Source: Pseudomonadota bacterium (GTDB lineage Bacteria; Bdellovibrionota_B; Oligoflexia; Oligoflexales; CAIYRB01). From it: a stretch of 64,000 nucleotides of DNA. Shown here piece by piece: positions 12,009-32,661 of the stretch. Position 1 is the stretch's first letter, and each line of letters opens with the position of its first letter. A program made the translations under genes and the position numbers. The stretch covers positions 1-64,000 of the forward strand of contig JANOTL010000146.1 in assembly GCA_031416315.1 (NCBI GenBank). The letters are read 5' to 3'. The notes beneath the pieces are model-generated. The model searched no databases. It saw only the letters and a program-made list of their open reading frames with translations, and was not told the DNA's origin.

Positions 12009-12955
12009 GGAACACTCCTTTGAGGCCGCGGAGTCGTGCTCCAAACACGGATGGTCCGATCGACGCTCGCGCTCATCACCCGCGCGCCGTCGGCCGATGT
12101 GGCCAGCGCGACGATCGCGTCGGAATGGCCGCTCAGCCGGTAGCGCTCCTCTCCCGTTGCGAGGTCCCATGCGATGATGAACCCATCCTCGCCCGCGGCC
12201 AGCACGAGATCCAGGCCCGGCGCGAAGCTCACGGCATTGAATTCGTAGCGCCCGGCGCTGAAACGGCGCAAAAGGCGCCCGGTCGCGACCTCCCATAGGT
12301 AGACCTCGGCCCAGCCGGGCGCGAGTAGGTAGCGCTGATCCGGCGAGATCGCGAACGTCGTGATTTGGCGACCGGACGCCTGCATCGTGCGCAAGAGCTC
12401 CCCGCTCGTCAGGTCGAAGATGCGAGCGTTGCCGTCGCGGTTACCGCCGATCACGACGAATCGACCCTCGCCTGCGACGGCGAGCGACCGCACGTACTGC
12501 CCGGGGAGATCGTAGCGGACGAGCGCCTGCCCGTTCGCCACGTCCCAGAGCGTCGCGCCGTCCTTGCCGCCGATCACCGCGAGACGCCCGTCCGGCGTCA
12601 GCGCCGCGCGTTGGCAGCAAAAATCGCCGTCACGATACGTGCGCTCGACGTCACCCGTCTCCAAATTTACGAGCTCCGCCGGCCCGTCGGAGATGCCGAC
12701 GAGCGCATGGCGGCCGTTGGGCGTCAGCGCCACGTCGCTCACGAAGACGTGTTCGTCGTGCACGCGAATCGTGCGCGTCAGCCGCCCCGTCGCCAGCTCG
12801 AAAATCCGCAGCGACGAGTCGTCGTCCGCGGCGAGCGCGAAGCCGTCGTCCGGCGGCAGGAACTGCAGGTCGAAAACCCGCACGCCGCGCGGCAACACGA
12901 TCGTTTGGATCGGCGCAACCGTCGACAACATCAGCGCTATTTTCAAGATGGACAC
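12005..12955 (-). CDS. WD40-repeat protein, probably exported
   Basis: About 7 WD40 repeats (GHSDAI…SASVDRTIRVW); short hydrophobic N-terminus. Confidence 0.85.
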   Translation of the reverse strand: MSILKIALMLSTVAPIQTIVLPRGVRVFDLQFLPPDDGFALAADDDSSLRIFELATGRLTRTIRVHDEHVFVSDVALTPNGRHALVGISDGPAELVNLETGDVERTYRDGDFCCQRAALTPDGRLAVIGGKDGATLWDVANGQALVRYDLPGQYVRSLAVAGEGRFVVIGGNRDGNARIFDLTSGELLRTMQASGRQITTFAISPDQRYLLAPGWAEVYLWEVATGRLLRRFSAGRYEFNAVSFAPGLDLVLAAGEDGFIIAWDLATGEERYRLSGHSDAIVALATSADGARVMSASVDRTIRVWSTTPRPQRSVP

Positions 12956-14489: not shown

Positions 14490-14503
<14 letters not shown>

Positions 14504-16460: not shown

Positions 16461-16639
16461 TTAAAGAGCCTTGAGGTAGGCCTCGACGCTCTGCCGTTCC
16501 GGCGCGCTCAAGAGCAGCTTGCTTGCGTCTGCAAGCCGCTTCATCTCGTCGAAGTACAAGGCCGTGCTCTCGGTCACGATCTCCTCGAAACGTTGGAACA
16601 AAGCTTCGGCGATCTTGCCGAAGAACTGGAAGCGGAAGT
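16461..16639 (-). repeat. Direct repeat A, copy 1: orphan copy of the last 179 bp of the dynamin-like gene
   Basis: Matches 19495-19673 with 3 substitutions; includes the TAA stop. Confidence 0.95.
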
Positions 16640-16655
16640 AAGCGTTTAGACGCAT
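16461..16655 (-). CDS. Possible 64-aa mini-ORF built on the duplicated dynamin C-terminus (or a gene remnant)
   Basis: GGGGAGGG 6 nt before the ATG; in frame with the duplicated segment. Confidence 0.4.
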   Translation of the reverse strand: MRLNAYFRFQFFGKIAEALFQRFEEIVTESTALYFDEMKRLADASKLLLSAPERQSVEAYLKAL

Positions 16656-16746
16656 TCGATTCCCTCCCCTTTCGCCAAACTTCTTCCTGCCCCAGCCGAG
16701 GGCGGAGTGCCGCCGAATGCCTTGTAGCGGACCTCGCTAAACGCAA

Positions 16747-19134
16747 TCACGGCCGATAAAACAAGCCCAAGTTCCCAACCGTAGCGCTCGGGAAGATCGG
16801 GGAACTGAAATCGATCGTCTGGCGAACCGGCGTGACGAAGTGAGGACAAGGGTCGACCTCAGGCCAAACGCAGAAGCCCGGGATGGTACGAAAGTTGTCT
16901 ACAGTCAGCGTATCGGTTACGTCAATCATCGAGTCGCTGGCGTCTGCCGCAAAGCCGTATTTCTGAGCAGCGCCAAAGGCTTGCGCGGCCGTCGCGTTGA
17001 TGCGGCCCTTTCGGACGGCATGAAAGCCGTAGTGCAAGTTGTCCCATGCTCGGGCGTTGGGCGTGTACATCGAAGCGTCGAAGAACGCCTGGTAGCCGAT
17101 GAAGTTGTTCCACGACATTCCTCTGACTGCCGTCAGGGTGCTGCCATGACGAGCCATGAATCCATAGCCAGCGCCAATGTGGCCAAGCTGATAGACGTTG
17201 GGCGAGCTCGGATTCGAATCCGCGAGGACATGAGTGGGCGTGCCGTCATTGTACCGATTGAAGTGCCCGTGCGCTTTGGCATCGGTAGTGTCGATGTCAG
17301 CTCCAGAGTTGGCCATGAACCCGCCGAGAAGGTTGTCATGGGCGACGGAGTTATAGGCCCGGATGATGCTTCGACCAGCTCCGGTCACAGCGAGCGACTC
17401 TCTGATCACACATTCGTTGAATAGTTCTGCGGTTCTTGCCGGCTCGGCACTCGCTTCCTTGGCACAAAGCGGGAAGCCCGTATCGCCCGCATGATTTAGC
17501 GTTTCCGCGACGTAGCCGAAGCCAAGACCTCGAGCCACGTCGGACGTAAAGCGCGAGACCGTGTGGTCGAGGTGAAGTTTCCCGCCGAAATAGGCGAAGA
17601 ATCCGGCGTCACCGGCTTCGGTGACCGTCACCTGATACGCGAAGCCGGTTGCCTGCTCCTCGGCCGCCATACCGTAGTAGAAGTTGTCGATGCCGACATG
17701 CTCCGCGTGGATGTGACTGCCGGCGAACCTCGACACGAGACCCTTTTGCCACTGCAACCGAACGCTACCCGCAGGCCAGGCTTCGGCCGGCAAGTGGGTG
17801 ACGGTGCGGCGCGGCTCCGAAAGCGGCTTTTCCCAGCCGGAGTAGCCACCCCGAATCGTCAGATTGCGCACGATAATCGCACCGGGCCGATCGGCATAGA
17901 CGGCGAAACCGGCACACGCCTCGAGCCCATTGACGCTATAGTCCAAGGTCGTCTTGTCTCGTCCTGCACCTTCGAGGACGATCATATTCGCGTAACCGTC
18001 GCCAGCGGTGAACGCGGTGCAGTCGCCCTGCGCCATCGAATGACTTCCAGAGCCGAAGAGGACGACGCGTGTGCGACCGGCGGACGTATCGATCTCGCGC
18101 GCGCATCTCGGTTCACCGCTGCACAAAAGTCGCGCGGCGGCGATCGCCGCGTTGGCACGGACCAAATACGCGCTCCGAACTTCGTCGGAGAAGATCGATT
18201 TGTCGGCGGGCATCTGAGGAACCGCGATCGGAACTGCCGGGCTCGGCGGTGTTTCCGGAAGGCCTTGCGTCGTCGGCGTGACCGGCACTTCGTCGGTAGG
18301 CGCAGCTGCCGAAGCGACGTCGTCGAGACCATACCAGTAGTCCTTGAGGCTCGTGCCGTCGGCGACGACGTAATCGACTTTCGTCTGACTCGTCCGGTCG
18401 TAGAATTGGACGGTAATCTGGGGAAACGGTATCCCGCTGCAACTAATGACGTCGTGGCCCCGATCCAAATGGTTCGCCTTAATTGCGGCATACTCGGCAG
18501 GGAGCTTCTCGCTAATGAGAGCAAGCACACGCGTGTAATCGTCTCTGTCCCTGCGTATGTCGCAGCGCGTCAATCCGACGAGCTCGACCTCGGCCGGATG
18601 GCTCGACGGGGAGACATCACTGAGCGTCTTGCTCTCCCCCGGCTCGAGTGCGAAAGGGAACGCGACGTCGACCGAGTTGCTCGAGTCGAACGCGAGACGC
18701 TTCAAGCCATTGGCAAACCCGGCCGCGGACACCGATATCTCGTAATCTTGTCCGGCCTGGATCATCACCGTGAAGACGTTCGATCGCGCATTCTTTTTGA
18801 CGATTTTGTGCAGGACCGTGCGCTTCTTCGATTTGGCGTCGCCATCAAGACGCTGTACGCGCACTTCGGCGCCGACGACTGGTTCATCTTTGGCGCTGAG
18901 GACGGTGACGACGAAGCGGGAGGTCTTGACCGGGTTGCCGACGTCCTCGAACCGAAGATCTCCCGGGAAAAGAAGGAATCCGCGCGCGGTCAGCTCTACC
19001 TCTGGATCGTCGGCTACCTCCGGCCCGTCCTTGCGCTTGGACGCGCCCGACTCGGCCGCCTTTCCGCAACCGACCGCGCTAAGACCGAAAATCGTGGCCA
19101 AAATGAGCGGCCGCATCGCCATTCGCATAGACAT
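16747..19134 (-). CDS. Lipoprotein with an N-terminal Ig-like region and a C-terminal pectin-lyase-like beta-helix
   Basis: AVGC lipobox; IVLEGAGRDKTTL, IIVRNLTIRG and repeated GF.A..G(S/G).(I/L).A..N coils. Confidence 0.7.
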   Translation of the reverse strand: MSMRMAMRPLILATIFGLSAVGCGKAAESGASKRKDGPEVADDPEVELTARGFLLFPGDLRFEDVGNPVKTSRFVVTVLSAKDEPVVGAEVRVQRLDGDAKSKKRTVLHKIVKKNARSNVFTVMIQAGQDYEISVSAAGFANGLKRLAFDSSNSVDVAFPFALEPGESKTLSDVSPSSHPAEVELVGLTRCDIRRDRDDYTRVLALISEKLPAEYAAIKANHLDRGHDVISCSGIPFPQITVQFYDRTSQTKVDYVVADGTSLKDYWYGLDDVASAAAPTDEVPVTPTTQGLPETPPSPAVPIAVPQMPADKSIFSDEVRSAYLVRANAAIAAARLLCSGEPRCAREIDTSAGRTRVVLFGSGSHSMAQGDCTAFTAGDGYANMIVLEGAGRDKTTLDYSVNGLEACAGFAVYADRPGAIIVRNLTIRGGYSGWEKPLSEPRRTVTHLPAEAWPAGSVRLQWQKGLVSRFAGSHIHAEHVGIDNFYYGMAAEEQATGFAYQVTVTEAGDAGFFAYFGGKLHLDHTVSRFTSDVARGLGFGYVAETLNHAGDTGFPLCAKEASAEPARTAELFNECVIRESLAVTGAGRSIIRAYNSVAHDNLLGGFMANSGADIDTTDAKAHGHFNRYNDGTPTHVLADSNPSSPNVYQLGHIGAGYGFMARHGSTLTAVRGMSWNNFIGYQAFFDASMYTPNARAWDNLHYGFHAVRKGRINATAAQAFGAAQKYGFAADASDSMIDVTDTLTVDNFRTIPGFCVWPEVDPCPHFVTPVRQTIDFSSPIFPSATVGNLGLFYRP

Positions 19135-19206
19135 GACTCACTTGGGTGTAAGGTTTCAGTGCTGATCGGTAAAGACGTCCAGGCACATAACCGCAAGACA
19201 TAACAT

Positions 19207-19220
19207 TCTGAATTTTCAGA
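19207..19220. promoter_or_regulatory. Palindromic candidate operator upstream of the beta-helix gene
   Basis: TCTGAA-TT-TTCAGA inside an AT-rich patch, about 75 bp upstream of the start. Confidence 0.35.
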
Positions 19221-19494
19221 TAATTTTTGTTCGCGCCGAGCCCTGCCTCAGGTGGACTGTCACGCCCTGCTGCGCTCGGACAATCCACGGTCGATCACCA
19301 CGCCTCGTTCGGTTGGTCAGATGCCGTCAGGCCATGCGACGTAGGTGAGCTGTGTCGTATAGCGCGAAAAGCGACGCCTACATCCCTTGCAGCGGAAGCG
19401 CTGAGCCTCGGGCGAGCGCCCGGCTTTGCTGCGGAAAACGCCCGACTTCACGACCTGGCGCCTGACAGAATGGGCTCCAGCCTAGTCGACCAGT

Positions 19495-19673
19495 TTAAAG
19501 AGCCTTGAGGTAAGCCTCGACGCTCTGCCGTTCCGGCGCGCTCAAGAGCAACTTGCTTGCGTCTGCAAGCCGCTTCATCTCGTCGAAGTACAAGGCCGTG
19601 CTCTCGGTCACGACCTCCTCGAAACGTTGGAACAAAGCTTCGGCGATCTTGCCGAAGAACTGGAAGCGGAAGT
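19495..19673 (-). repeat. Direct repeat A, copy 2: current 3' end of the dynamin-like gene
   Basis: Matches 16461-16639 with 3 substitutions. Confidence 0.95.
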
Positions 19674-21654
19674 TCTCCTTGGCGCTGCTCACGGAGAATT
19701 CAGAATCCTCGACCGCTGCTTTAAATGCGGCGATCAAGGAGCGCGTCCACAGCTTCTCGACTTTGGCTCGCTGCGCCTCCGCCCCAGGCGCCTTCCGCGT
19801 GACCTTCGCGCGCGCCATCTCGAAGAAGCGCTTGGCGTAGAACTCCGCGGCAAGGCTGCTCTCAACGACGTGGATCAGGACGACGGGCCGCAGGACCTCC
19901 GGCACCGGCGCCGCCAAGGACAACCGCTCCAGCCGCTCTTTCAAACCCGTCATCACGTACGCATGCTCGGGCAGGGCGTGCGACGAAGTCTCGGCCAGCT
20001 TTGGCGCGATGACGCTCGGAATCAACTTGTACATGTGCGCGAGGCTTTCGAGCATCGTCCGGAACCCCGCCTCGATAAAGGGATTCACGTGCTTCAGCCG
20101 CAGGATCTGATCGAAGCGCGTCCAGTCGGTGTTGACCGCCTCGAGCGCCTGCGCCATCACCGCCCCGTGCCGCGTCACGCCGTGGAGGGTCTCCGGCAGC
20201 GGAAACTCGGTGGCGAGCTTCGCGCGCTTGTCCTTGACGTAGGCTTGCAGCTCCTTCTCGATCGGCCCGTACTTGTCGAACGCCTCGAAAGCGAGCTTCG
20301 TCAGCTTCTTGTGCAGCTCGGCGCGCTCGCCTTCGAGGATACGCTTGACCGCGAGCCGCACCTCGCGCTCGCCGAGCTCGCTGCTTTGCAGGCCGAACAC
20401 CTGCCGATCGCGCGCCAACAAGGCTTTCGCGGTCGTCTGCGCCCGTTGCACCAGGACCGGCAGCACGCGCTCGCTCGACTGCAGCCCGGCGGTGGCGGCC
20501 GCCGCGTCGCTCAAGCCGCCGAGAAGTCTGCCGAATTCGCTTTCGACGTGGCGCCAGGTCGCGGCCGCGCCGCGGCTTTCCCAGAGCTTGCGCATGAGCT
20601 CGAGCTCGTCGGCCTTAGTCTCGCGGTAAAGCTCGAGCAGAGCATTCACGACGTGGACCTGAGTCGACGCCAAACCCAGCTGCGTGAGATCGCTCTTCGC
20701 CTTCGCGACGAGCTTCGCCAGCTCGGCTTCCGAAAGCGGCTCGTAGGCCTCGACGTTCAAGATCACGGTCGACTTGTCCGCAAGACCGGCGCGCTGCACG
20801 TGCCCGAGCAGATCGCGATCCGCGAGGCGCAGACCCAGGCGAGAGTTCACCACGTAGAAGATCTGGTCGGCGCGATGGAGCGCGGCGTCGACGGCGGCGA
20901 AATCGAGCGGATTCAGCGAGTCGCTCCCCTGGCAGTCGACGAGCGCGACCCCCTCCGGAAGGCGCGGCGTGAACGGCAGCTCGACCAGAATCTCGTGGAT
21001 CAGCACCGCATACTCGGGCGAAGCCGCCCAACGCAGGTAGTTGCTGAAGCCGGCGCCGCTGAAATCGAGAAAATGCTGCGTGCGGACCTGCTCGACCGTC
21101 TGCGGGTCGAAGTCGCGGTGGATCGCGTCGAGGCACGTCAGGGTGTGCCGCACGCGCGCATAAGCCAGAGCCAGAAAGCTCGAAGCCTCGTCTCTGCCCT
21201 TGATCGCATCGAGCCGACCGTCCTCCGCCGCAGATTTCTCGAAGCCTGCGAACAACTCGCGCAGCTTCGGCACGGCGACGCGGTCGAACGGATTCTCGGG
21301 GATGACGACCTCGCAGCCGAGCATGCGAAAGTCGAAGGCCAGCATCGCCGTCAGCTGCGCCGGCGACTTGAAGCTGATCCGCGCCGCGCGGGTCGTCGCA
21401 TGCTGGACGCGGAAGATGTTGAACGTTTTCACGCCCGAGCCGCGGGGCAAGACGTCCGCAGCCGCAAGCGCCGACAGGAAAGTCGACTTGCCCGACTTGA
21501 TCGTGCCGAGCACGTAGGTCGAGCGCTTGCCGCCGCTGGAGAGCAGCTGGCCGCCGAGCTGACGGAAATCCGGGAACGAGCCGCGGATGCTCGGGACTTC
21601 CGTCTCGAGGCGGAGCGTGAGGTCGGCTAGATCGTCGAGAGAGCGCGCTTGCAT
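19495..21654 (-). CDS. Bacterial dynamin-like GTPase
   Basis: G1 GTIKSGKST, LPRGSGVKT (G2) and LVDCQG (G3); long helical C-terminus. Confidence 0.75.
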   Translation of the reverse strand: MQARSLDDLADLTLRLETEVPSIRGSFPDFRQLGGQLLSSGGKRSTYVLGTIKSGKSTFLSALAAADVLPRGSGVKTFNIFRVQHATTRAARISFKSPAQLTAMLAFDFRMLGCEVVIPENPFDRVAVPKLRELFAGFEKSAAEDGRLDAIKGRDEASSFLALAYARVRHTLTCLDAIHRDFDPQTVEQVRTQHFLDFSGAGFSNYLRWAASPEYAVLIHEILVELPFTPRLPEGVALVDCQGSDSLNPLDFAAVDAALHRADQIFYVVNSRLGLRLADRDLLGHVQRAGLADKSTVILNVEAYEPLSEAELAKLVAKAKSDLTQLGLASTQVHVVNALLELYRETKADELELMRKLWESRGAAATWRHVESEFGRLLGGLSDAAAATAGLQSSERVLPVLVQRAQTTAKALLARDRQVFGLQSSELGEREVRLAVKRILEGERAELHKKLTKLAFEAFDKYGPIEKELQAYVKDKRAKLATEFPLPETLHGVTRHGAVMAQALEAVNTDWTRFDQILRLKHVNPFIEAGFRTMLESLAHMYKLIPSVIAPKLAETSSHALPEHAYVMTGLKERLERLSLAAPVPEVLRPVVLIHVVESSLAAEFYAKRFFEMARAKVTRKAPGAEAQRAKVEKLWTRSLIAAFKAAVEDSEFSVSSAKENFRFQFFGKIAEALFQRFEEVVTESTALYFDEMKRLADASKLLLSAPERQSVEAYLKAL

Positions 21655-21737
21655 GCAGGTGCCACCGAGCTGTGATCACCTAAGTTATCGCATAAGGTCG
21701 CGCGTCGCGCGCCGGGCAAAACTTTCCTAGACGGCTC

Positions 21738-22916
21738 TCATTCGCAGGCTTTGAACGAGCGCTTCAGATCTTGCGGCAAGGCAGAAACGAGCGCGTCGGC
21801 TGTGAACGGGAAGCCGAAGCCGCGGCCCGGCACGACGGAGTCCTTGTGCGACGCTTGCCAACGCTGGCGCACGTCTTCCCACTGCTTCGCCGGATACTGA
21901 CCTGCGTCTAGGTAGGGAGGGCACGGCTGGGCGCCGAAGCCGCCGAACCTGCCGCCGACCGCGGCCGCTGGGCCGTTCGGTGAAGCATCGTACATCAGGA
22001 GAAGGTTCATCGCCGGGTCGTTGAAGAGCGCTTGCAAAGGCGCCCAGTCCGGACTGCAATTCCGCGCCGACGGCGGCACGCCGCCCCCGCCGAAGGGGTC
22101 GAAGGGACTGCCCCCAGGGAAGCCGCCGGTCATCTCGCCGCCGCCACCTTCGCCGTCGTGGCCGAAGTTGTCGGTGATCAGAATAGTGATGGGAACGAGG
22201 TCGTGATCCGGCGACGACGCGCCCGAGATTTTCAGCTGCTCGAGGCCCGTACGTAGCGCCAGCATCCCGCCTTCCGTGCCGTCACCGCCGCCCAGCGCCT
22301 GCAGCCCGCCGACCTGGGACGCGAGGCTCGCGGGCGCGCCGAGCGGGATCAAGCCCTGCTCCGCCGCGACGTCCTTGAAGGCGATCCCGCCGACCGAGAC
22401 GCTCGCGACTTTCACGTCCTTGGTGCCGAAGTCGATCGACGCAACCTGCGTCGCGAATTGCGCGACGTTGGCTTTGACGAGCTCGATCGAAGGCGCCATC
22501 GAGCCGGTGATGTCCATGATGAACATGATCTTGACGTCGACGGGGCGGCGCAGGCAGCGCACCGTCTTGCCGTCTTCGTTGATGACGACGTCGTTGGCGG
22601 CGTCGACGTCGACGCTGCCGTCGTTCTTGTCGTCGCCCGATCCACTTTTGCCCCCGGACTTGCCGCCGGGGCCGCCGGTCGTCCCGTCCTTGCCCTTCTT
22701 GCCGTCCTTGCCCTTCGACTTGTCGTCTTTGCCGTTCTTGTCGCCGCCGCCGGCGGTGGTTTTGTCGCCGTCCTTGCCCGTATCCCCGTCTTTCGCGCTC
22801 TTTTTGGCGGCGCTCGTGGCCGCGGCCCCGCCGCCGCCTGCGAATTCGGAGCCCGAGCAGCCGGCGCCGAGGCCGAGCACGGTGAGCAAAAGCGGCGCGA
22901 TCAAGGGATTTTGCAT
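21738..22916 (-). CDS. VWA-domain lipoprotein
   Basis: AGGAG RBS; GAGC lipobox; K/D/G-rich tether; MIDAS-like DITGSM…GGGDGTE…ITD. Confidence 0.85.
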   Translation of the reverse strand: MQNPLIAPLLLTVLGLGAGCSGSEFAGGGGAAATSAAKKSAKDGDTGKDGDKTTAGGGDKNGKDDKSKGKDGKKGKDGTTGGPGGKSGGKSGSGDDKNDGSVDVDAANDVVINEDGKTVRCLRRPVDVKIMFIMDITGSMAPSIELVKANVAQFATQVASIDFGTKDVKVASVSVGGIAFKDVAAEQGLIPLGAPASLASQVGGLQALGGGDGTEGGMLALRTGLEQLKISGASSPDHDLVPITILITDNFGHDGEGGGGEMTGGFPGGSPFDPFGGGGVPPSARNCSPDWAPLQALFNDPAMNLLLMYDASPNGPAAAVGGRFGGFGAQPCPPYLDAGQYPAKQWEDVRQRWQASHKDSVVPGRGFGFPFTADALVSALPQDLKRSFKACE

Positions 22917-23004
22917 GGATGGTCTCCTGTCTCCCTCATCGGCATGGCGCGTGGCAAAGCTTACCCGTATAGTGCGAGGGTCTTAAAATCGAAGGATTTC
23001 GCTC

Positions 23005-23850
23005 ATGTCCGACAGCACCGTTTCGCCCTTTAGGAAAGACCTCCTGAAAAGTCGCGTCGCATTGGTCACCGGCGGAGGCACCGGCATCTGCAACGGCATC
23101 GCCCACGCCTTCGGTCGCCACGGCGCCAGGCTCGCGCTGATGGGCCGCCGTCCCGAAGTTCTCGACGCCGCCGTCGCGGCTCTGGCGAAAGAGGGGATCG
23201 AAGCCCTCGCGGTGCAAGGCGACGTCCGCGACGGCGCCGCATGCGAGCGAGCGGTCGAGACCGTGCAGAGCCGCTTCGGCAAGCTCGACGTCCTGGTCAA
23301 CGGCGCTGCGGGCAACTTCCTCTGCCCGTCCGATAAGCTCTCGTCGAACGGCTTCAAAACCGTGATCGACATCGACCTGCTCGGCTCGTTCAACATGGCT
23401 CGCGCTGCCTACGAGGCGCTGAAGAGCGCCGGATCCAGCGTCATTCTCAACATTTCGGCGACCTTGCACTATCAGGGCACGCTCATGCAGGCGCACGTGA
23501 TGGCAGCGAAAGCCGGCATCGACGCCCTCGGCCGCAATCTAGCCTGCGAGTGGGGGCCGCAAGGTGTCCGCGTCGTCGGCATTGCACCTGGCGCCATCGG
23601 CGACACCGAGGGCATGCGCCGCCTGGCGCCGATGGGCGCGGACAAACGCGTCGCCGAGGAGACGCCGCTGAAGCGTTTGGGCAAGATCGAGGACATCACC
23701 AACGCCGCAGTCTTCCTCGTCTCGGACGCCGGTTCCTTCATCACGGGCGAGACACTCGTCGTGGACGGCGGACAGTGGCTGGCAAAGCCGCCGTTCGTCA
23801 CCCGCGAGATGTGGGAGAAACTTGCAGCACAGCAAACCAAAGGAAGCTGA
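23005..23850 (+). CDS. SDR oxidoreductase, 2,4-dienoyl-CoA reductase-like
   Basis: TGGGTGI, NGAAGNF, LSSNGFKTVIDID, AAKAGID and TGETLVVDGG. Confidence 0.9.
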   Translation: MSDSTVSPFRKDLLKSRVALVTGGGTGICNGIAHAFGRHGARLALMGRRPEVLDAAVAALAKEGIEALAVQGDVRDGAACERAVETVQSRFGKLDVLVNGAAGNFLCPSDKLSSNGFKTVIDIDLLGSFNMARAAYEALKSAGSSVILNISATLHYQGTLMQAHVMAAKAGIDALGRNLACEWGPQGVRVVGIAPGAIGDTEGMRRLAPMGADKRVAEETPLKRLGKIEDITNAAVFLVSDAGSFITGETLVVDGGQWLAKPPFVTREMWEKLAAQQTKGS

Positions 23851-23860
23851 GTCCGGGTCG

Positions 23861-24859
23861 ATGTCCGCCACGACCGCGATGCAGCTCAACAACCACTGGA
23901 CGCGGCTCATGCGGCGTCTACGCTGGGTGTCGCATCCGATCACGATCTTCGTGGGCCTCCAGATCGTTTGGCTGGCGATCACGATCATCTGGGTCATCTG
24001 GTTCGTCGGGGCCGAGGCCGAGATCTCGAAGCTCGCCGCCCGTTTTGGCGGACAGTACTTCGACAGCACCGCCAGCATCGCCATCCTGATCACGGGATGC
24101 ATCCTGCTCGGCGTCCTGCTTTTCGGGACGATCACGCTCTTCGTCTTCGGGCAGAAGCAGTCGGCCGCGGCCCGTCAGCAGCGCAACTTCGTTTCCTCGG
24201 TGACCCACGAGCTGAAGTCCCCGCTCGCGAGCCTGCAGCTCGGCTTCGAGACCCTCGGCGCCCGCAAGCTCCCGGAAGAGACGCACGCCCGCGTCATGTC
24301 GATGATCGGCACCGATATCGACCGCCTGCGGCGTTTGGTCGATCAGATCCTCGTCGCCGGCCGCATCGACCGCGGGCTCTTGACCTTCGAAGAGGAGACG
24401 CCTCAAGACATCGACATTCACGAGCTCCTCGACAAGATCATCGAAAAGCTCTCGTACGTCGATCATGCCGTCAATGATCGGGTCGTGGTCCAAGCCCCAA
24501 AGGGCTTTCGGATCCGAGGCTCGCGCTCGGTCCTGATCCTGGTCTTGAACAACTTGATCGAGAACGCGCTGAAGTACTCGCCCAAGGGCGAGCAGATCAC
24601 CGTCGCCGTGGCCGTCGAGGAGCGCGAAACGGTCATCAAGGTCGAAGACCGCGGCATGGGCCTCGACAAGGCGGACATGCGCCGCATCTTCCGCATGTTT
24701 CATCGCAGCGAGTCCGCGATCAAAAAGGCGATCCCGGGCACCGGGCTCGGCCTCTACATCGTCCGCTCCGCCGTCACCATGCTCGGCGGCCGCGTCTGGG
24801 TCGAAAGCCCCGGCCGCGGATCCGGCTCGACCTTCTTCGTCGCGTTCCCGAAAGGCTGA
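23861..24859 (+). CDS. Sensor histidine kinase (2 TM segments, HisKA, HATPase)
   Basis: THELKSPL, NLIENALKYS, EDRGMG and GTGLGL. Confidence 0.93.
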   Translation: MSATTAMQLNNHWTRLMRRLRWVSHPITIFVGLQIVWLAITIIWVIWFVGAEAEISKLAARFGGQYFDSTASIAILITGCILLGVLLFGTITLFVFGQKQSAAARQQRNFVSSVTHELKSPLASLQLGFETLGARKLPEETHARVMSMIGTDIDRLRRLVDQILVAGRIDRGLLTFEEETPQDIDIHELLDKIIEKLSYVDHAVNDRVVVQAPKGFRIRGSRSVLILVLNNLIENALKYSPKGEQITVAVAVEERETVIKVEDRGMGLDKADMRRIFRMFHRSESAIKKAIPGTGLGLYIVRSAVTMLGGRVWVESPGRGSGSTFFVAFPKG

Positions 24860-24867
24860 ATCTCGCC

Positions 24868-25590
24868 ATGCCGGACCCGAAAAAACGCATCCTTCTCGTC
24901 GAAGACGAGCCCAACCTAGCCTTCAACCTGCAATTCAACTTGCAGGCCGAGGGTTATGACGTGGTCCCGGCGGTCGACGGACTGATCGCGACGAAAAAAT
25001 TCGACGGCGACGGTCCGTTCGACCTCGTCATCCTCGACGTCATGCTGCCGGAGATGAACGGCTTCGAGGTCGCGGGCCACATTCGCGGCCGCGACGATCA
25101 AACGCAGATCCTCATGCTCACGGCGCTCGGCAAGGAAGAGGACCGCCTTCGCGGCTTCGAGGCCGGCGTCGACGACTACATCACCAAGCCCTTCCACCTG
25201 AAGGAGTTCCTCCTCCGAGTGAAGCGGATGATGCGGCGCTCGGGCTACTTTCAGCCGGCCGAGGGCTCGTCCGCAACCGTCGCGACGACCCTCGTCCGCT
25301 GCGGCCCGTTCGAGCTCGACGTCGATCTTCTGACCTTGAAGTCGCCGCACGGCAGCGCCACGCTCACGGCGCTCGAGGCGGACATTCTCAAGGAATTCAT
25401 GAACAACCCGAATAGAGTCCTGTCGCGTCAGCACCTTCTCGACACCGTCTGGGGGATGAAGGGCGACATCGAGACGCGGACCGTAGACAACTTCATCGTG
25501 CGCCTGCGACGCTATCTGGAGCCTGATCCGACGACGCCTCGCTACCTCGTCTCCGTCCGCGGGCGGGGATACCGCCTTCTGGACTCCTGA
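24868..25590 (+). CDS. OmpR-family response regulator
   Basis: LVEDE, ILDVMLP, DDYITKPF and winged helix TVDNFIVRLR…SVRGRGY. Confidence 0.95.
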   Translation: MPDPKKRILLVEDEPNLAFNLQFNLQAEGYDVVPAVDGLIATKKFDGDGPFDLVILDVMLPEMNGFEVAGHIRGRDDQTQILMLTALGKEEDRLRGFEAGVDDYITKPFHLKEFLLRVKRMMRRSGYFQPAEGSSATVATTLVRCGPFELDVDLLTLKSPHGSATLTALEADILKEFMNNPNRVLSRQHLLDTVWGMKGDIETRTVDNFIVRLRRYLEPDPTTPRYLVSVRGRGYRLLDS

Positions 25591-26510
25591 TGTTCCTCGA
25601 CTTCGAAAAATGGCACGGCTGCCGCAACGACTTCATCGTCACCTGGATCGGGGACGAAGGCGGGGAGCTCGTCGAAAGCTCGTTGCGGCGCCAAGCCGTC
25701 GCGCTCTGCGACCGCCGCGCCGGCATCGGGGCTGACGGGATCCTGATCCTCCGCGGCAAGACGCGCGACGGGCTCACGCCCGACCGCCTAGCCATCGTCA
25801 ACAGCGACGGCTCGCTCGCCGCAAACTGTGGCAACGGCCTGCGGGTCGCTGCGCTCTCCATCCTGAAACGCCACCGCGAGAAGGGCGATCCGAAGGAGCT
25901 GCCCGAAGCCGTGTCCCTGACCGTCACGACGGACCCGGCGGGCGGCGAAAAGGTCTGCCGGTTCCTGCGGCCTTCGGGGCCGTGGCCCTTGGTGGCGGTG
26001 GAGATGGGAGTTGCCCATACCGACGCGGTACCTTGGAAAGCCGAAGTCCTTGCACGCTTCAAGGCGCTTGGAGTTTCCGCGGAAGACGTCGGTGTCTGCG
26101 ATATCGGCAATCCCCATCTCGTCGTCCAGACGGAGTTGGCATCGCGCGAGCTCGTGCTGAAGGTGGGGCCCGCGCTTCAGCAAGGCAACGGTCTCAACGT
26201 CCACCTCGTCCGCTCCGTCCCTCTCACGGACAAAGACCAGCAGCGCGCCGGTCAAGAGCTCGGCGGCCGCCTTGGCAAGCTTTTCCGCGCCTACGTCTGG
26301 GAGCGCGGCGCGGGCGAGACCGAAGCCTGCGGCACCGGCGCCTGCGCGGTTGCCGCGTGCTCTTTGGCGACAGGATTAGGCGAGCGCGAGGCGTGGGTCG
26401 CCGTCGACATGCCGGGCGGCCGCCTTTATGCGAAGCAGGAAGCTCCGACGGAGCCCGTTCTCCTAGCGGGGCCGGGCGTTTTCGTGTATTCGGGCAGGCT
26501 TGGGCTATAA
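25590..26510 (+). CDS. dapF: Diaminopimelate epimerase
   Basis: KWHGCRNDF, GIGADG, NSDGS…CGNG, GNPH and ERGAGETEACGTGA. Confidence 0.9.
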   Translation: MFLDFEKWHGCRNDFIVTWIGDEGGELVESSLRRQAVALCDRRAGIGADGILILRGKTRDGLTPDRLAIVNSDGSLAANCGNGLRVAALSILKRHREKGDPKELPEAVSLTVTTDPAGGEKVCRFLRPSGPWPLVAVEMGVAHTDAVPWKAEVLARFKALGVSAEDVGVCDIGNPHLVVQTELASRELVLKVGPALQQGNGLNVHLVRSVPLTDKDQQRAGQELGGRLGKLFRAYVWERGAGETEACGTGACAVAACSLATGLGEREAWVAVDMPGGRLYAKQEAPTEPVLLAGPGVFVYSGRLGL

Positions 26511-26512
26511 AC

Positions 26513-27238
26513 ATGAATCGCGATGAGCTAATCCAAACCGTAATGCCGCTCCTGCGCGCAGCACGCAGCTACCACCGCCATGAGGTCGTGGGGCTCGAGC
26601 ACGTGCCGAAGGACGGCCGCGCGCTCATCATCGTCAATCACAGCCTTGCCACGTACGATATCGTGCTCCTGATGGTCGCGATCTACGACGACTTGAAGCG
26701 GATGCCGCGGCCGCTGATCGACCGACTCTTCTTCAAAGTTCCTTTTCTCGGCGATTTGGCGACTTTGTTTGGCGCGGTTAAGGGTTCGCAGGGCGGCGCC
26801 GAGTCGCTTCTCGACGAAGACGAGATCGTCACGGTCGCTCCGGGCGGCATGCGCGAGGCGCTTCGCCCCTCAACGCAGCGTTATCAGATCCGCTGGGAGC
26901 GCCGCATGGGCTTCGTAAAGCTCGCGATGCGCAAGAAGTCGCCGATCCTCCTCGCTGCGTGTCCGAAGGCTGACGACCTCTACGAGATCTATCCGAGCCA
27001 CATGACGAAATGGATCTACCAAAAGTTTCGGGTTCCGATCTTTTTCGCGCGCGGCATCGGCCCAACGCCGATTCCCCGTCCGGTCAAGCTCGTCCACTAT
27101 CTGAGCGAGCCCATGGTGCCGCCGGAGTGGATCGAAGACGACGACGACGGCAACGATCAGCGCGCCAAGACCTTCCACAAGAAGCTGATCAAGAGGATGC
27201 ACGCCCTCATCGCGGACGCGATCCAGCACCGCGATTGA
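26513..27238 (+). CDS. Lysophospholipid/glycerol acyltransferase (PlsC superfamily)
   Basis: NHS…D motif, PGGMREA and R.GFVKLA. Confidence 0.85.
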   Translation: MNRDELIQTVMPLLRAARSYHRHEVVGLEHVPKDGRALIIVNHSLATYDIVLLMVAIYDDLKRMPRPLIDRLFFKVPFLGDLATLFGAVKGSQGGAESLLDEDEIVTVAPGGMREALRPSTQRYQIRWERRMGFVKLAMRKKSPILLAACPKADDLYEIYPSHMTKWIYQKFRVPIFFARGIGPTPIPRPVKLVHYLSEPMVPPEWIEDDDDGNDQRAKTFHKKLIKRMHALIADAIQHRD

Positions 27239-27252
27239 AACGGGTCGCGACC
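27202..27252 (+). repeat. Direct repeat B, copy 1 (acyltransferase 3' end)
   Basis: 51 bp; 3 mismatches to 31814-31864. Confidence 0.92.
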
Positions 27253-27351
27253 CGACTCGCAATCCGTGTACGTAACCAGCCGATTCCTTTATATAAAAGC
27301 AAACATTCTCAGGGGGCCAACTAGGTTGACCGAAAAGACCGTGCACTTAGT

Positions 27352-28629
27352 ATGGCGGTTCAACCAATGCGCATCGCAGCCATCATAGCCTTAATGCCCG
27401 TGCTGGCTTGCTCCAATGGAGACGTCCTGTCGGACGGTCACAGTGGCAAAGACAGCGGCTCAAAAGAGGCCGGTCTCGGGCAGTCAGGGTCGAAGGAAGG
27501 CTCAGCGAGCGATTTTGAGTTCTCCACCTCGATTCCGCCGACCAATGTCACCAGCATCAATTTGACGTTCAGCTGTAGCTGGGACCGAATCGCTGCGACG
27601 GATATCGACTCACTTCAGGTTATCTGCACGGCGGGGGGACTTGCCGCCGCGGACACGAAATATGATTGGGTCGTTCCCGGGGCCAAGATTCTGCCGGGCG
27701 ACGCGCCGGAGAAGATCCGGATTGAGACGACACGCGCGCTGCTCCCGCTCGCGAACGTCACCGTGACCGCGTCATCGGAAAGCCGCGGCGAGGCGCCATC
27801 GTCGTACTCGGGTAGTTTGGCAAAGCATCTCCCGGGATTCGCCGGCAGCAGTGGTCTCGCCGCTTGCTTCATCGACGGCCAAAAGCCGGTTCAGGATTGC
27901 CTGAATGCCGCTGGTCTCTACGTGCAAGCTGACAGCTCGATCACGACGGAGCCCGTAGGCGGCGGCTGCAAGCTCACGGCGGAGCCAGCCCTGATCCGTA
28001 AATCGCGTGCCGACGTCGTGACGCTTTCGCTCTCGGCGACCGATGGCGCGAGCGTCGACGACTATCTCTTTGTCGAAAGCGATTTCTCAAACGGCAACGT
28101 CGTCTCACGCCAGGCCACCTCGGTGCAGTTTCAGCCGCTCACGGCCGACGTGATGCTCGAAGACCGGCTGCGTTTCGCCGCGGTCGCCGCCAACGGTAAG
28201 GTCTGTTTCGCGGAAGTGCGCGTCACGTTCGTCGAGGTCGCGGTGGCGGCGCATAGCGAGATTTCGGCCGCGACTTCCGCGGCCGAGCCCGGCCGCTCGC
28301 GGACGACGTTCCAAGTTTCTTTCCTTAGCCCGGACGAGGTCGTTACCGACGCCGCGCTCCTTGCTTTCTCGAAGGACTTTTCGGAGCCGCGCTTTGCCTA
28401 CGCCGCGCCGGTCTGCGTGGGCCGTATCTGCTCGCAAGTCGTAAGCCTCGATTACGCGCGCAAGTTCGTCGCCACGACGACGCGCTACACCGGGCAAATC
28501 GTCGAGTTGCGGGTCAACGCGACGACGACCGCCCCTTTCGCGGTCCGATTCGACCGCGCGTTCAACGTGGTCGTCGGCGGCGAGAAAGTGCCCGCACGGA
28601 CGATCGACGGCTCAGCCGAGTCCTTGTAA
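27352..28629 (+). CDS. Hypothetical lipoprotein
   Basis: VLAC lipobox; S/G/K tether; beta-rich body. Confidence 0.7.
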   Translation: MAVQPMRIAAIIALMPVLACSNGDVLSDGHSGKDSGSKEAGLGQSGSKEGSASDFEFSTSIPPTNVTSINLTFSCSWDRIAATDIDSLQVICTAGGLAAADTKYDWVVPGAKILPGDAPEKIRIETTRALLPLANVTVTASSESRGEAPSSYSGSLAKHLPGFAGSSGLAACFIDGQKPVQDCLNAAGLYVQADSSITTEPVGGGCKLTAEPALIRKSRADVVTLSLSATDGASVDDYLFVESDFSNGNVVSRQATSVQFQPLTADVMLEDRLRFAAVAANGKVCFAEVRVTFVEVAVAAHSEISAATSAAEPGRSRTTFQVSFLSPDEVVTDAALLAFSKDFSEPRFAYAAPVCVGRICSQVVSLDYARKFVATTTRYTGQIVELRVNATTTAPFAVRFDRAFNVVVGGEKVPARTIDGSAESL

Positions 28630-28787
28630 TTGCTTTCGGGCGCCGTTCCGGCCTTCGCCACGGCACGAAAACCCTAAATGTTCTAGTGGTTTGGAACAAT
28701 CGGCAAGAAAGCGACCGTCCCACCGACAAAAGTAGTGAGCTGCTGCAGCCGAAACGGACCTTGGCTCAAATATGCACGGAGACCTAG

Positions 28788-30431
28788 ATGTCATTCGCCC
28801 GCACCGCTGCGATCTGCGCGATCGCAGCCTGCATCTCCTGCTCGAACAACCCCGACGAGCCGTCGAGCGCCTCGAAAAAAGCTGCCGCGAAAAAGGCCGC
28901 AGCGAAGAAGGTCGCGACCGCGGATAAGACTGCCACGGCAGGTAAAACCGGCGGGGCGAGCAAGCCCAAAGGGTGCCTCGCGGTGCTCAACGGCAAACCG
29001 ACGAGCAATTACTCATACGTCCTGAAGATGACTTCGCCGAGCGTCTGCACGGTCTCACTCCTCTCGCCTACGACCCTGCTAACGGCGGCTCACTGCATCC
29101 CGCGGGGACTGACCAGTCTCGCCGTCGACGGACTGGGGACGCTGCAGGTTGAGTCGATCACGACGCGCGACTTTTTCGCGGAGGACGCGGCGGCGCTACT
29201 CTCGAACAAGGACAATATCGGACGCGATATCGCGCTGCTCAAGCTCGCGCAACCGATCACTTCACGACCGTACGCAAAACTGTACTTCGGCCCGCTCGCC
29301 ACCGGAGACGCGGTCGAGATCGCCGGATACGGGCTCAGCCAGACGAGCTCCGCCGCCGGCGTCGTCTCGCCGGCGGGAGGGCCCAGCGAGATGCTGTTGG
29401 TGGCTCCCAACAAACTTTTCGCCAGCATCGATCCGGCGCTCATCGTCGTTCTGGCCAAGGATGACGTACAGAACGGCATCAGCATGCCTGGCGACTCGGG
29501 TGGCCCGCTGCTCCGCAACGACGCGATTCTGGGCGTTATGCACAAAGGCTCTTCGAACTTCGCGATGGGGGGCCTCAGTAGCGTCGTGCCCACGACGCCC
29601 GAGATGCTCGACCGCCTCTCGGCCGCGCCGCCGCAGTTTTTCGCCGTCTGGGCCAGCCTGCAGGATCCAGGGGTCCGAGCGTTTCTCGCCGACGCGAAGG
29701 CAGCCGGCTATTCGTGGGACGCAGTCGGGGAGGCGACGGACGATGGGTCCGTAGCGCCGTCGGTGCCAGGCGTCGCTCCGGCAGCCGCGGACGCTGCTCC
29801 ATCGGCCCCGGGCGCGATGCCGCAAACTGGTGCCACAGCAGGCGTGCCCGCGGCGACCGCGGCGGGTGCGAGCGATTGCGATATCGTGACCACTCCGGCT
29901 GCCGCAGCGCCGCCGTCGGCCGCGACCCCAGCGCCCGTAGCCGCCGCCGAAGTCGATAAACCTGGGTCCGAAACCGTCGCCGCGCCAAGTCCGCCCGTCG
30001 TCAGTACGACGCCGACTGCAGGCTCACTAGACCAGGCAACGGTTCAAAGCTATGTCGCAAAGATGAACGCGGTGCGCGCTCAACCGACGACCTGCGGCGG
30101 CGTTGCCGCTCCCGCCGTACCGGCCTTGACCTGGGACGAGAAGCTGTACCAAGCCGCGTTGCGCCATTCCATCGATCTCGAGAGCAAAGGCATCGCCGGC
30201 CATCAAGGCAGCGACGGAAGCATGCCGAACGATCGCATTGCCGCGGCGGGCTATCTTTTCCGAACCGCAGGCGAGAATCAAGCTTCCGGATTCTTCGATC
30301 TCGAGAGCGTGTATGCCGCTTGGCAGTCCAGCCCGGGACACTGCGCGAACAACATGGCGAACTACTATACGCAGTTTGGACTTGCCGCGAAAAATGGGGT
30401 CTGGACTCTGGTCTTCGCGACCCCCCAATGA
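28788..30431 (+). CDS. Lipoprotein: S1 (trypsin-fold) serine protease plus CAP/SCP domain
   Basis: TAAHC, DIALL and GDSGGP triad; Ala/Pro linker; N.VR…LTWD.KL..AA..HS…H.GSDGS…GEN…W..SPGHC.N. Confidence 0.9.
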   Translation: MSFARTAAICAIAACISCSNNPDEPSSASKKAAAKKAAAKKVATADKTATAGKTGGASKPKGCLAVLNGKPTSNYSYVLKMTSPSVCTVSLLSPTTLLTAAHCIPRGLTSLAVDGLGTLQVESITTRDFFAEDAAALLSNKDNIGRDIALLKLAQPITSRPYAKLYFGPLATGDAVEIAGYGLSQTSSAAGVVSPAGGPSEMLLVAPNKLFASIDPALIVVLAKDDVQNGISMPGDSGGPLLRNDAILGVMHKGSSNFAMGGLSSVVPTTPEMLDRLSAAPPQFFAVWASLQDPGVRAFLADAKAAGYSWDAVGEATDDGSVAPSVPGVAPAAADAAPSAPGAMPQTGATAGVPAATAAGASDCDIVTTPAAAAPPSAATPAPVAAAEVDKPGSETVAAPSPPVVSTTPTAGSLDQATVQSYVAKMNAVRAQPTTCGGVAAPAVPALTWDEKLYQAALRHSIDLESKGIAGHQGSDGSMPNDRIAAAGYLFRTAGENQASGFFDLESVYAAWQSSPGHCANNMANYYTQFGLAAKNGVWTLVFATPQ

Positions 30432-30482
30432 GGCAAGGCATGAGCGAGTTTGGAAGATCGACGGGTTCTGGAGGAACGAGTG

Positions 30483-31790
30483 ATGCTTCGATGCAAAGGC
30501 GCGTGGTTTCTGGTCCTAGGGCTCTGCCTGCCCACGGCATGCAACGAGGCCAAGTTCGACGGTAAAGACTCCAAAGCTAAAAAGGTTGCGAAGCCGGGTG
30601 CGCCGGCTGCCGTGCCGTCGGCACCTGTCGCCTCGGGCGGTCTCGCGACGGTCGGTGGACGCGTGTCGGTCGTTTACGACATCGATCTACCGGAGGCGGC
30701 GCCAATTGCCGGCACCTTCAGCGAGCACTACCGCAGCATCGACCTAGGTCTGCCGCCCGGAGTGCCGACGCCTTTCGGCTGCATTACCGCGATCCCGGGG
30801 CAATCGGAGAGCATCTTGGTCGGCGGGGGCGCCAACAGTCCGGAAGGCAAGCTCTACAAAGTCGCCATTCGTCGCGACGGGCTCGGCCACATCGCCGGCT
30901 TCGACGGCCAGGCCGAAGAGATCGCGCCCGCGCCCTACAACGACGGGGGCTGCGTTTTCCTGACGCCGGACCTGCTCCTGATGTCCAAATGGCCGGTTCA
31001 CCAACTGGCTTTAGTTTCGCTCGCCACGAAGAGCGTTGTCGGCTCAGTGGCGCTCCTCAACGTCGGCATCCCGACGGCCGGACAGGCCGCCAACGAGTCC
31101 AGCGCCGCCATCGCGGTCATTCCGGGCGCCTCCCCGCCGGGGAGCCGGATCAAGATCATGACCTGGCCCTCGGGGCGCATGTTCGAGGCGCAGGTTTCCA
31201 TCGAATCTGGCTTGGTGATCTCAAACGTCGTGGAGAGCGGCGTTCTGGCGACCGTCGGTCCGGAAGGCATCGCCTATGTGCCGCCGGGCTCGCCGGGGAT
31301 CGTCGGCACCGCGGCGATCGTCGCCGAGTGGAGCCGCGGAGCCATCGCCGTCTACCAGACCGACGCGCAAGGCGTGTTGAATCCCGAGAGCCGGCAAGAG
31401 GTTCTGCAGCTCAAAGGCGCGGAAGGCGCGTACTTCGACCCGATCTCGGGCGACTTTCTGTTCTCGACCTTCGGCAACGGCGCGGCCGAGCGCATCGTCG
31501 GCTTGCGCGGATTTGCGCGGACGCCGGGCGAATCGAATTTTACGGTGTTCGACGGTAGCGCCTTTGTCGACCTCGACGGGAACGGCACGCTCAGCGCCAA
31601 TGATCCGAGCGCGGTCGTAAACATTGCGGGACTCTTTCAAATCAGCGGCGTTCCCGCGGGCGACTGGAATGTCGGGCTCGAGGTCCGATCCGCGCACTCG
31701 ATCAGCACGCCGCTGTCGGGGAGTGTCCCGGTAAGCGTCGTTCCGAGCGGCGTCCACGCAGGAATTGACTTCAAGGTGCAGCCGAAATAG
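30483..31790 (+). CDS. Lipoprotein with a propeller-like domain and an SdrD-B-like C-terminus
   Basis: GGAGGA RBS; PTAC lipobox; GPEGIAYVP and GAEGAYFDP; FVDLDGNGTL…G.FQISGVPAGDW. Confidence 0.75.
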   Translation: MLRCKGAWFLVLGLCLPTACNEAKFDGKDSKAKKVAKPGAPAAVPSAPVASGGLATVGGRVSVVYDIDLPEAAPIAGTFSEHYRSIDLGLPPGVPTPFGCITAIPGQSESILVGGGANSPEGKLYKVAIRRDGLGHIAGFDGQAEEIAPAPYNDGGCVFLTPDLLLMSKWPVHQLALVSLATKSVVGSVALLNVGIPTAGQAANESSAAIAVIPGASPPGSRIKIMTWPSGRMFEAQVSIESGLVISNVVESGVLATVGPEGIAYVPPGSPGIVGTAAIVAEWSRGAIAVYQTDAQGVLNPESRQEVLQLKGAEGAYFDPISGDFLFSTFGNGAAERIVGLRGFARTPGESNFTVFDGSAFVDLDGNGTLSANDPSAVVNIAGLFQISGVPAGDWNVGLEVRSAHSISTPLSGSVPVSVVPSGVHAGIDFKVQPK

Positions 31791-31813
31791 CGAGCGGGTC
31801 GAAGCGCGGCTCT

Positions 31814-31864
31814 CGCCCTCATCACGGACGCGATCCAGCACCGCGACTGAAGCGGGTCGCGACC
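31814..31864 (+). repeat. Direct repeat B, copy 2 (cysQ 3' end)
   Basis: 51 bp; 3 mismatches to 27202-27252. Confidence 0.92.
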
Positions 31865-32661
31865 TCGCGCGCGAGCGCGACGTCACCGGCGGCGACGAAG
31901 CCCGGGTTGCGCAGCGAGCCGGTGCGATAGGCGAGGGGCGCGCCGTCGAATCGCAGGATCACGCCCCCGGCTTCCTCGAGCACGAGCTGCGGCGCTGCGA
32001 TGTCCCAAAGGCTAGTCTCGCCGCGGCGCACGTGAGCATCGGCTTCGGCCGAGGCGACAGCGCAATACTTCAACGAGCTGCCGACTGCGCGAAAGCTGGC
32101 GGCGGGCCACGCGTCCCGCACGGTCGCGGCTTCGTCCTTCGCGTGATTGCGGCTGATCAGGAAGACGGGGCCGACGGCGCCCGCGCCGCGGCTTCGCACC
32201 CGTAGTCGTGACGCCCCCGCGATGCCCTCGGCCGATAGCCAAGCGCCTTCGCCCAATGATGCGGCATAAACCTTCTTCGCGACCGGAGCCGCGACGACGC
32301 CGAGAACCGGCTTTCCGTCCTCCATCAACGCCACGTTCACCGCGTACTCGCCGCTCCCCGACAAAAAGTCTTTCGTCCCGTCGAGCGGATCCACGAGCCA
32401 ATACCGCGGGGCCTGCATCGCGACCGCGAGCATCTCCCTTTCAGTCTGGCCGGACTCCTCGGAAAGCACTGGAACGCCGCTCAAAAGTTGGGCGAGCTCG
32501 CGCTCCAAAATCACGTGCGCCGCCTTGTCGGCTAAGGTCACGGGCGACGCATCGCCCTTCGTCTCGACGCCGAGCACGCCGCCGTTCTGAACTTGCACGA
32601 TGGCCCGCCCCGCGGCTGCCGCAATCGCAACCACCCGCTCCATCAGATCTTTTCGGCTCAC
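31822..32661 (-). CDS. cysQ: 3'(2'),5'-bisphosphate nucleotidase CysQ
   Basis: K.DASPVTLAD, LSEE, WLVDPLDGTKDF, GSSLK and WDIAA. Confidence 0.92.
   Translation of the reverse strand: MSRKDLMERVVAIAAAAGRAIVQVQNGGVLGVETKGDASPVTLADKAAHVILERELAQLLSGVPVLSEESGQTEREMLAVAMQAPRYWLVDPLDGTKDFLSGSGEYAVNVALMEDGKPVLGVVAAPVAKKVYAASLGEGAWLSAEGIAGASRLRVRSRGAGAVGPVFLISRNHAKDEAATVRDAWPAASFRAVGSSLKYCAVASAEADAHVRRGETSLWDIAAPQLVLEEAGGVILRFDGAPLAYRTGSLRNPGFVAAGDVALAREVATRFSRGAGSRP

Follow-up and report, generated by a model that had tools for sequence, protein, structure and literature searches.

Integrase-free insertion of predicted lipoprotein genes between duplicated gene 3′ ends in an uncultured Oligoflexales bacterium

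The window analyzed here is a stretch of 64,000 nucleotides (positions 1 to 64000 of contig C146 in genome G000, an assembly of 6.36 Mb in 226 contigs; GenBank contig JANOTL010000146.1) from a member of the Oligoflexales. It contains two blocks of cargo genes, referred to as cassette 1 and cassette 2, each of which lies between two copies of the 3′ end of a neighboring gene. This is a real and recurring footprint of integrase-free gene gain and belongs to a known kind. With moderate confidence, we attribute the inserts to the cell's own one-sided homologous recombination with DNA from relatives, either similar to homology-facilitated illegitimate recombination (HFIR) or of the Campbell type, and not to a dedicated integrase.

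Two cassettes bounded by duplicated gene ends

Self-comparison of the window showed that repeat 1 (16461–16639 and 19495–19673) is 179 bp long with 3 mismatches and has its boundary exactly at the TAA stop codon of a dynamin-like GTPase gene (PF00350) encoding 719 residues. The intact gene occupies 19495–21654 on the reverse strand, so that the right copy constitutes its last 179 bp, and the left copy, on the same strand, is an orphan. Repeat 2 (27202–27252 and 31814–31864) is 51 bp long, also with 3 mismatches, and takes in the 3′ ends of a convergent gene pair, namely an acyltransferase gene (PF01553; 26510–27238, forward strand) and a cysQ-like phosphatase gene (31822–32661, reverse strand; 228.3 bits for TIGR01331, with a cut-off of 228.8). 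Both copies reach into both genes: the left copy holds the last 37 bp of the acyltransferase gene plus 14 bp of cysQ-tail sequence, and the right copy holds the final 43 bp of cysQ and a further 8 bp past its stop codon. The inserts measure 2855 bp (cassette 1) and 4561 bp (cassette 2). Each repeat is present in two copies in the assembly, and their bit scores of 310 (repeat 1) and 79.7 (repeat 2) compare with a maximum of 41 across 30 shuffled windows. Coordinates, uniqueness, and shuffled controls thus agree with the initial annotation, which had described two cargo blocks bounded by repeats of these lengths and mismatch numbers, each repeat carrying a neighbor's 3′ end including the stop codon; to this we add that repeat 2 contains the ends of two genes. 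Its statement that no flanking gene is broken also holds, as all flanking genes are whole and the dynamin-like protein has 719 residues both here and in G001, a genome of the same genus.

Genes were predicted with a home-made hexamer model, which yielded 4591 proteins. The cargo of cassette 1 is a single gene (16747–19134, reverse strand) for a predicted lipoprotein of 795 residues that has no Pfam or NCBIfam family and consists of two separable homologous regions (residues about 9–312 and 308–795). The C-terminal part is possibly a right-handed β-helix, a lead given by an Atlas score of 0.89, which is below 0.9. Cassette 2 contains three genes on the forward strand, all for predicted lipoproteins: cargo 2a (27352–28629; 425 residues, no family), cargo 2b (28788–30431; 547 residues, with trypsin and CAP domains), and cargo 2c (30450–31790; 435–446 residues, with a domain known in PEP-CTERM and other exported proteins). 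Cargo 2c is present in 1 of 11 family genomes. A lipobox-like N terminus, detected with a regular expression that we wrote, occurs in all four cargo products, as compared with 611 of the 4591 proteins genome-wide, in line with their earlier designation as predicted lipoproteins. The GC content at third codon positions and the codon adaptation of the cargo genes are below those of their neighbors.

No recombinase or transposase family was found among the 63 six-frame open reading frames (ORFs) of both inserts (Pfam, E ≤ 0.1); one sub-threshold match to Arm-DNA-bind_3 (E = 0.068) lies in the wrong frame within a cargo gene. Likewise, tblastn searches with the genome's 7 integrases and 4 transposase-like ORFs gave no match in either insert, PF00589 and PF07508 have no match anywhere on contig C146, and the cargo of neither cassette contains a restriction–modification (R–M) family. 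No tRNA, Rfam family, or stable fold was found at the cassette junctions. The proposal that the cassettes are free of recognizable recombinases therefore stands at the level of genes, but cassette 1 does contain a trace of a mobile element.

An unsplit selC attachment junction in cassette 1

This trace, at 16640–16691 (forward strand), adjoins the orphan dynamin tail. It resembles the attP junction of a selC (tRNA-Sec) island and is composed of a 15-bp right arm, a 23-bp core, and a 14-bp left arm. The core (16655–16677) matches the 3′ 23 bases of the tRNA-Sec gene on contig C95 with one mismatch, and none of 100 shuffles gave such a match. On C95 (26462–44676), the tRNA-Sec gene stands beside selB and is followed by two islands in tandem, the inner one with a tyrosine integrase and the outer one, of 13 kb, without an integrase remnant. 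It is the two arms of the outer island that match the window: the left 15 bases of the junction resemble its distal end, and the right 14 bases its proximal end (38 bp at 97% identity, E = 2.6e-11, and 35 bp at 94% identity, E = 1.3e-8). Among elements mobilized by tyrosine integrases, the succession of right arm, core, and left arm is the layout of attP or of the inner junction of a tandem array.

Cassette 1 ends in this attP-like junction, and its cargo therefore likely derives from a selC-type element or island. The source was likely an excised circle or the internal junction of a tandem array, with the attachment site carried along unsplit. The selC integrase did not carry out the insertion, because the core is unsplit and still has both arms on it. 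The core pattern was found in 3 of 12 family genomes, with one occurrence per genome outside G000, and searches of viral and metagenome contigs for the att-arm patterns gave no match. On C10, a match resembling tRNA-Cys was put down to chance, since it falls within a coding gene. No account of an attP-bearing piece captured by such a route appeared among the literature listings searched, which is a weak negative.

Read in reverse, the att core supplies an ATG and a Shine–Dalgarno-like run in frame with the orphan tail, giving a putative mini-ORF of 64 codons (16461–16655, reverse strand). The stop codon of the orphan tail lies 3 nt ahead of the next gene, which encodes an OafA-like acyltransferase-3/SGNH protein (14490–16457, reverse strand), has low codon adaptation, and is possibly older cargo. 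To judge from this arrangement, the mini-ORF, if translated, may keep translational coupling to that gene. Eight bases of the att arm recur in inverted form at 16730–16750, about 90 bp from the arm and at the end of the cargo gene.

Recurrence, divergence of the copies, and state of the sites in relatives

The scan for recurrence covered G000 and 858 kb of contigs from relatives. Comparison of genes with their contigs by BLASTN gave 190 matches; a 3′ end is covered by 30 of them and a 5′ end by 2. In the tally, shared repeats were counted once, and stop-adjacent palindromes, tRNA pairs, within-gene repeats, paralogue pairs, remnants resembling insertion sequences, and intergenic repeats were dropped. 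At six loci, a second copy of a gene's 3′ end lies downstream and points the same way (C74, C104, C146 twice, C176, and C188), and at three further loci a mid-gene fragment lies downstream (C55, C138, and C208). The total for G000 is thus nine loci, or about 1.4 per Mb, including both window cassettes. The repeats across all cases are 30 to 359 bp long, and the target genes are unrelated. A same-orientation 5′ case was not found at ≥80% identity; there is one at 73% on C219. PF00589, with 11 matches in the genome, is absent from 8 of the 9 loci, the exception being C188 (198–7003, L037), where a classical element with an integrase and a 30-bp repeat occupies the 3′ end of groEL. The C74 locus contains transposase remnants.

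Two cases were found in another genus, both in genome G004, and none that was clear in the contigs of the other relatives. At dapF, a 3′ end of 359 bp (90% identity; L045:6096–6439 and 12440–12797) surrounds about 6 kb of cargo encoding a GLUG/chitobiase-domain protein and an AAA_14/DUF4143 ATPase. The second case, with 107 bp of an outer-membrane-like gene (C4:26209–26901), seems by eye to enclose a remnant of the same type of ATPase. Recurrence, as expected in the initial annotation, was therefore found within and beyond the genome. Its restriction of the route to lipoproteins or effectors is not supported, since the cargo over all cases also includes glycosyltransferase, MBOAT, HipA-like, and AAA_14/DUF4143 genes. 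Two observations stand apart from this tally. A 10-mer from the end of the selC arm is also found about 110 bp from the orphan in G004, possibly by chance, and a 210-bp intergenic direct repeat (92% identity) surrounds a 4.8-kb block at C120:2609–7867 that contains what we take to be arsenic or metal resistance-like genes.

A single ABC-ATPase gene is represented by three orphan 3′ fragments, two on C104 and one on C219, which start at about nt 250, 716, and 848. The two stretches concerned (C219:5143–12424 and C104:1–7665, L031) probably form a single array, although the adjacency of the contigs is itself inferred. They contain three diverged copies of a gene for a lipoprotein of about 700 residues and one unrelated lipoprotein gene, which are separated by the ABC-ATPase fragments and by a 5′ fragment of the other neighbor. 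On C219, this 5′ fragment of the left neighbor is fused straight onto an ABC fragment, and the fused fragments are only 73–84% like the resident genes. The two orphans on C104 are 92% alike, as compared with 81–82% to the intact end. Reuse of a crossover core was not borne out at C104/C219, the only locus tested for it, as the fragment starts vary; later erosion is possible. Likeness of the joint to the C95 arm is loose and amounts to 4–5 bases. The initial annotation had offered a single trans-acting recombinase as one possible agent, and both the three starting positions of the ABC orphans and the unrelated target sequences speak against it.

We compared intact and orphan copies for eight pairs, seven in G000 and one in G004; repeat 2, C176, and C188 were left out as short or double-coding. 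The differences comprise 82 synonymous and 55 nonsynonymous changes, where 39% synonymous changes would be expected if the orphan were an exact duplicate decaying neutrally (pooled p about 1e-6). Because the differences are mainly synonymous, these sequences point to both copies having diverged as working alleles in the older cases, with a donor end displacing the resident end.

The proposal to compare the two sites with relatives gave a split outcome. At site 2, the matches to the acyltransferase and cysQ genes overlap or lie within 500 bp of each other in 8 of 11 family genomes, meaning that the site is empty at the level of genes; these genomes are too distant for comparison at the level of bases. 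In G009, the cysQ frame runs on into the acyltransferase end. Other genes occupy the interval in G002 and G004, with no repeat, and in G001 the site is broken by contig ends. For cassette 1, no empty site was found in the relatives searched, only 2 of 40 of which have the dynamin gene. Searched with the dynamin protein, metagenome contigs gave no match and genome contigs gave G001 alone, and in G001 other genes follow the dynamin gene. Several intergenic repeats of 150–180 bp (90–97% identity) were seen around a dynamin homologue in G013 (L007:4498–18580).

Origin of the insertions and comparison with known systems

One-sided homologous recombination would proceed as follows. Donor DNA consisting of the target gene followed by cargo would enter the cell, probably by transformation, and would recombine on one side within the target gene, so that the donor 3′ end completes the gene. 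The far end would then be joined illegitimately inside the resident gene, as in HFIR; alternatively, the fragment would circularize and enter by a single crossover, with an identical product. Either way, the resident 3′ end would be stranded downstream as the orphan. Selection would retain those events that leave both neighbors whole, which at the overlap of the acyltransferase and cysQ genes would be events duplicating the overlap. We infer the uptake route, the identity of the donor copy, and the linear or circular form of the intermediate. The further cases, the empty site 2 in relatives, the competence genes of this genome (ComEC, PF03772, and DprA, PF02481, both above cut-off), and the synonymous bias of the divergence all support homology-driven integration, which the initial annotation had named as one of its options.

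Several points weigh against this explanation. Only two of the eight pairs are significant singly, C208 shows the opposite ratio (10:15), and the sites are non-independent. Neither window repeat can tell a conspecific donor from exact duplication: repeat 1 has two synonymous changes and one nonsynonymous change (p = 0.28), and repeat 2 codes on both strands. A synonymous bias would also be expected of integrase elements that carry a gene end, of the type of e14 at icd. The overlap in repeat 2 had to be truly duplicated once, because both copies extend into both genes, and one-sided homology alone leaves this unexplained. Ku was not found in the genome, which is 93% complete, and the variant with an end-joined circle is thereby weakened. 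HFIR is described as rare in the cited part of PMC5361080, and neither an empty site in the same species nor a donor or excised form was found. Finally, the six mismatches of the window repeats are transitions without exception, which fits the decay of exact copies.

The last point leads to the best of the alternatives, which we nonetheless regard as unlikely: an exact long duplication of the target during break or fork repair, in which nonhomologous foreign DNA is joined at two staggered chromosome positions (e.g., on two sister copies), such that 51–179 bp are doubled in one step. Besides the transitions, this is favored by the presence of both gene ends on both sides of cassette 2, by a contig from another study in which the intact copy has the base of the orphan at 19551, and by its compatibility with the direct insertion of an attP-bearing piece. 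The older cases argue against it, given their synonymous bias and orphans that resemble each other more than the intact gene, as does the low identity of the fused C219 fragments to the resident genes.

Decayed or trans-mobilized site-specific elements are less likely still. The repeats would then be attL and attR, as for e14 at icd, and the integrase would have been lost or would be supplied from elsewhere in the genome. In favor of this, the genome has its PF00589 matches, the groEL element with its own integrase, and an outer selC element that lacks an integrase remnant, and e14 leaves an icd tail of 163 bp (PMC6379469, in the part cited). However, neither insert contains an integrase remnant, the targets have no core in common, fragment starts vary at one gene, and cassette 1 has its only real att site in unsplit form. 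In addition, no integrase-bearing element was found at site 2 in the 11 family genomes, and the other genes at this position in G002 and G004 are there without a repeat.

It is highly improbable that the cassettes arose without incoming DNA, through a tandem duplication inside the genome and later deletion or replacement. Cargo 1 and cargo 2a do have distant paralogues in the genome (27–35% identity; those of cargo 2a are on C75 and C225), but these are too distant and lie in unrelated contexts. The lower third-position GC content and codon adaptation of the cargo also speak against this origin, as does the C-terminal region of cargo 1, which was not found in the 11 family genomes; the empty sites without a nearby cargo homologue largely refute it.

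The layout of the window was checked against re-assembled contigs of public runs. Contigs of run X1, which is probably the source sample, show zero differences and span three junctions (19494, 27252, and 31813), and the depth over the collapsed repeat 1 is 17.4, as compared with 10–11 in the flanks. Runs X2–X4 cover a small share of the stretch and were used solely for single bridging contigs: one in X2/X3, which belong to a second study and may be a single data set deposited twice, bridges 19345–19603 and hence junction 19494, and one in X4 (a second sample) passes 16639 with 11 letters on its short side. Misassembly or chimeric binning has a negligible chance of being the explanation in view of these contigs and of the three differing sites in each pair of copies, even though the assembly is a short-read metagenome assembly at about 10× and no piece among those listed bridges junction 16639/16640 with at least 31 letters on both sides. 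No excision joint was seen among the joints listed in the four contig sets, where contigs drop rare forms, so that their absence is not shown.

The pattern has a close precedent in insertion with long target duplication (ILTD; Furuta et al. 2010, PMC2853133). As far as the cited part of that study goes, ILTD denotes integrase-free inserts, mostly in competent species, with long repeats that often span start or stop codons; inserts are <20 kb and free of mobility genes, and duplications are >30 bp and unique in the genome. That the route is new is therefore not supported. Like ILTD, the window cassettes have inserts of <20 kb, without a mobility gene even in cassette 1 with its att site, and duplications of >30 bp, each unique to its two copies; the repeats span a stop codon, the target is left intact, and competence genes are present. 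ILTD was described for R–M genes, which was a search filter, whereas the cargo here consists of predicted lipoprotein and envelope genes. The comparison with an empty allele extends to site 2 at gene level, in the relatives described above.

HFIR has been invoked for arrays of effector and immunity genes of type VI secretion systems (Kirchberger et al. 2017, PMC5361080). On the proposed reading, the present loci share with these arrays one homologous anchor, one illegitimate joint, displacement of resident sequence downstream, and, at C104/C219, serial stacking. They differ in that the anchors are housekeeping or ordinary genes, resupplied with their own 3′ end, and not toxin loci. Both HFIR-like and circle-plus-crossover models have been put forward for orphan arrays, in the parts cited of PMC5361080 and of Jackson et al. 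2009 (PMC2935791). Unlike the C-terminal displacement at rhs in the latter, the present cases involve no variable toxin tip or immunity gene, and the cargo lies outside the target ORF. Prophage e14 resembles the cassettes in that a duplicated protein-gene 3′ end of 160–180 bp, including the icdC tail, flanks foreign DNA (PMC6379469 and PMC13626634, as cited in part), but e14 integrates site-specifically, whereas the window inserts have neither an integrase nor a common core.

Hotspots of horizontal gene transfer (HGT) that are free of mobile genetic elements (MGEs) are ascribed to recombination in the core genes beside them (Oliveira et al. 2017, PMC5635113). The interval between acyltransferase and cysQ, which differs among G000, G002, and G004 and is empty in eight other genomes, behaves like such a hotspot; the published model, in the part cited, is a double crossover that leaves no duplication. 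A bolder proposal, which we consider doubtful, is that integrase-less selC elements excise by means of a neighbor's integrase and that host recombination then captures the resulting attP circles at the ends of unrelated genes. Cassette 1 would then be a captured 3-kb circle, island cargo would become fixed in the core chromosome, and the stacking of relatives' alleles would account for much of the lipoprotein repertoire of the genus. If true, circle capture would connect site-specific islands with gene gain free of MGEs, which is an open point for HGT hotspots.

As the evidence stands, the cassettes are a further example of a known pattern. A footprint known mainly from R–M genes and toxin arrays is here extended to ordinary genes in a sediment lineage that is uncultured. 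One genome shows several events that differ in age, and the orphan ends record the alleles that were displaced. A rare direct clue to the origin of integrase-free cargo comes from the unsplit selC att site.

Two minor observations concern other genes. A gene for a VWA-like predicted exported protein (21738–22916), for which no flanking repeat was found, lies between the dynamin and SDR genes and is missing at that position in G001. The match to a PilZ-domain gene contains two in-frame TAG codons in G005, the source genome of L043, and one in G006, the source of L044.

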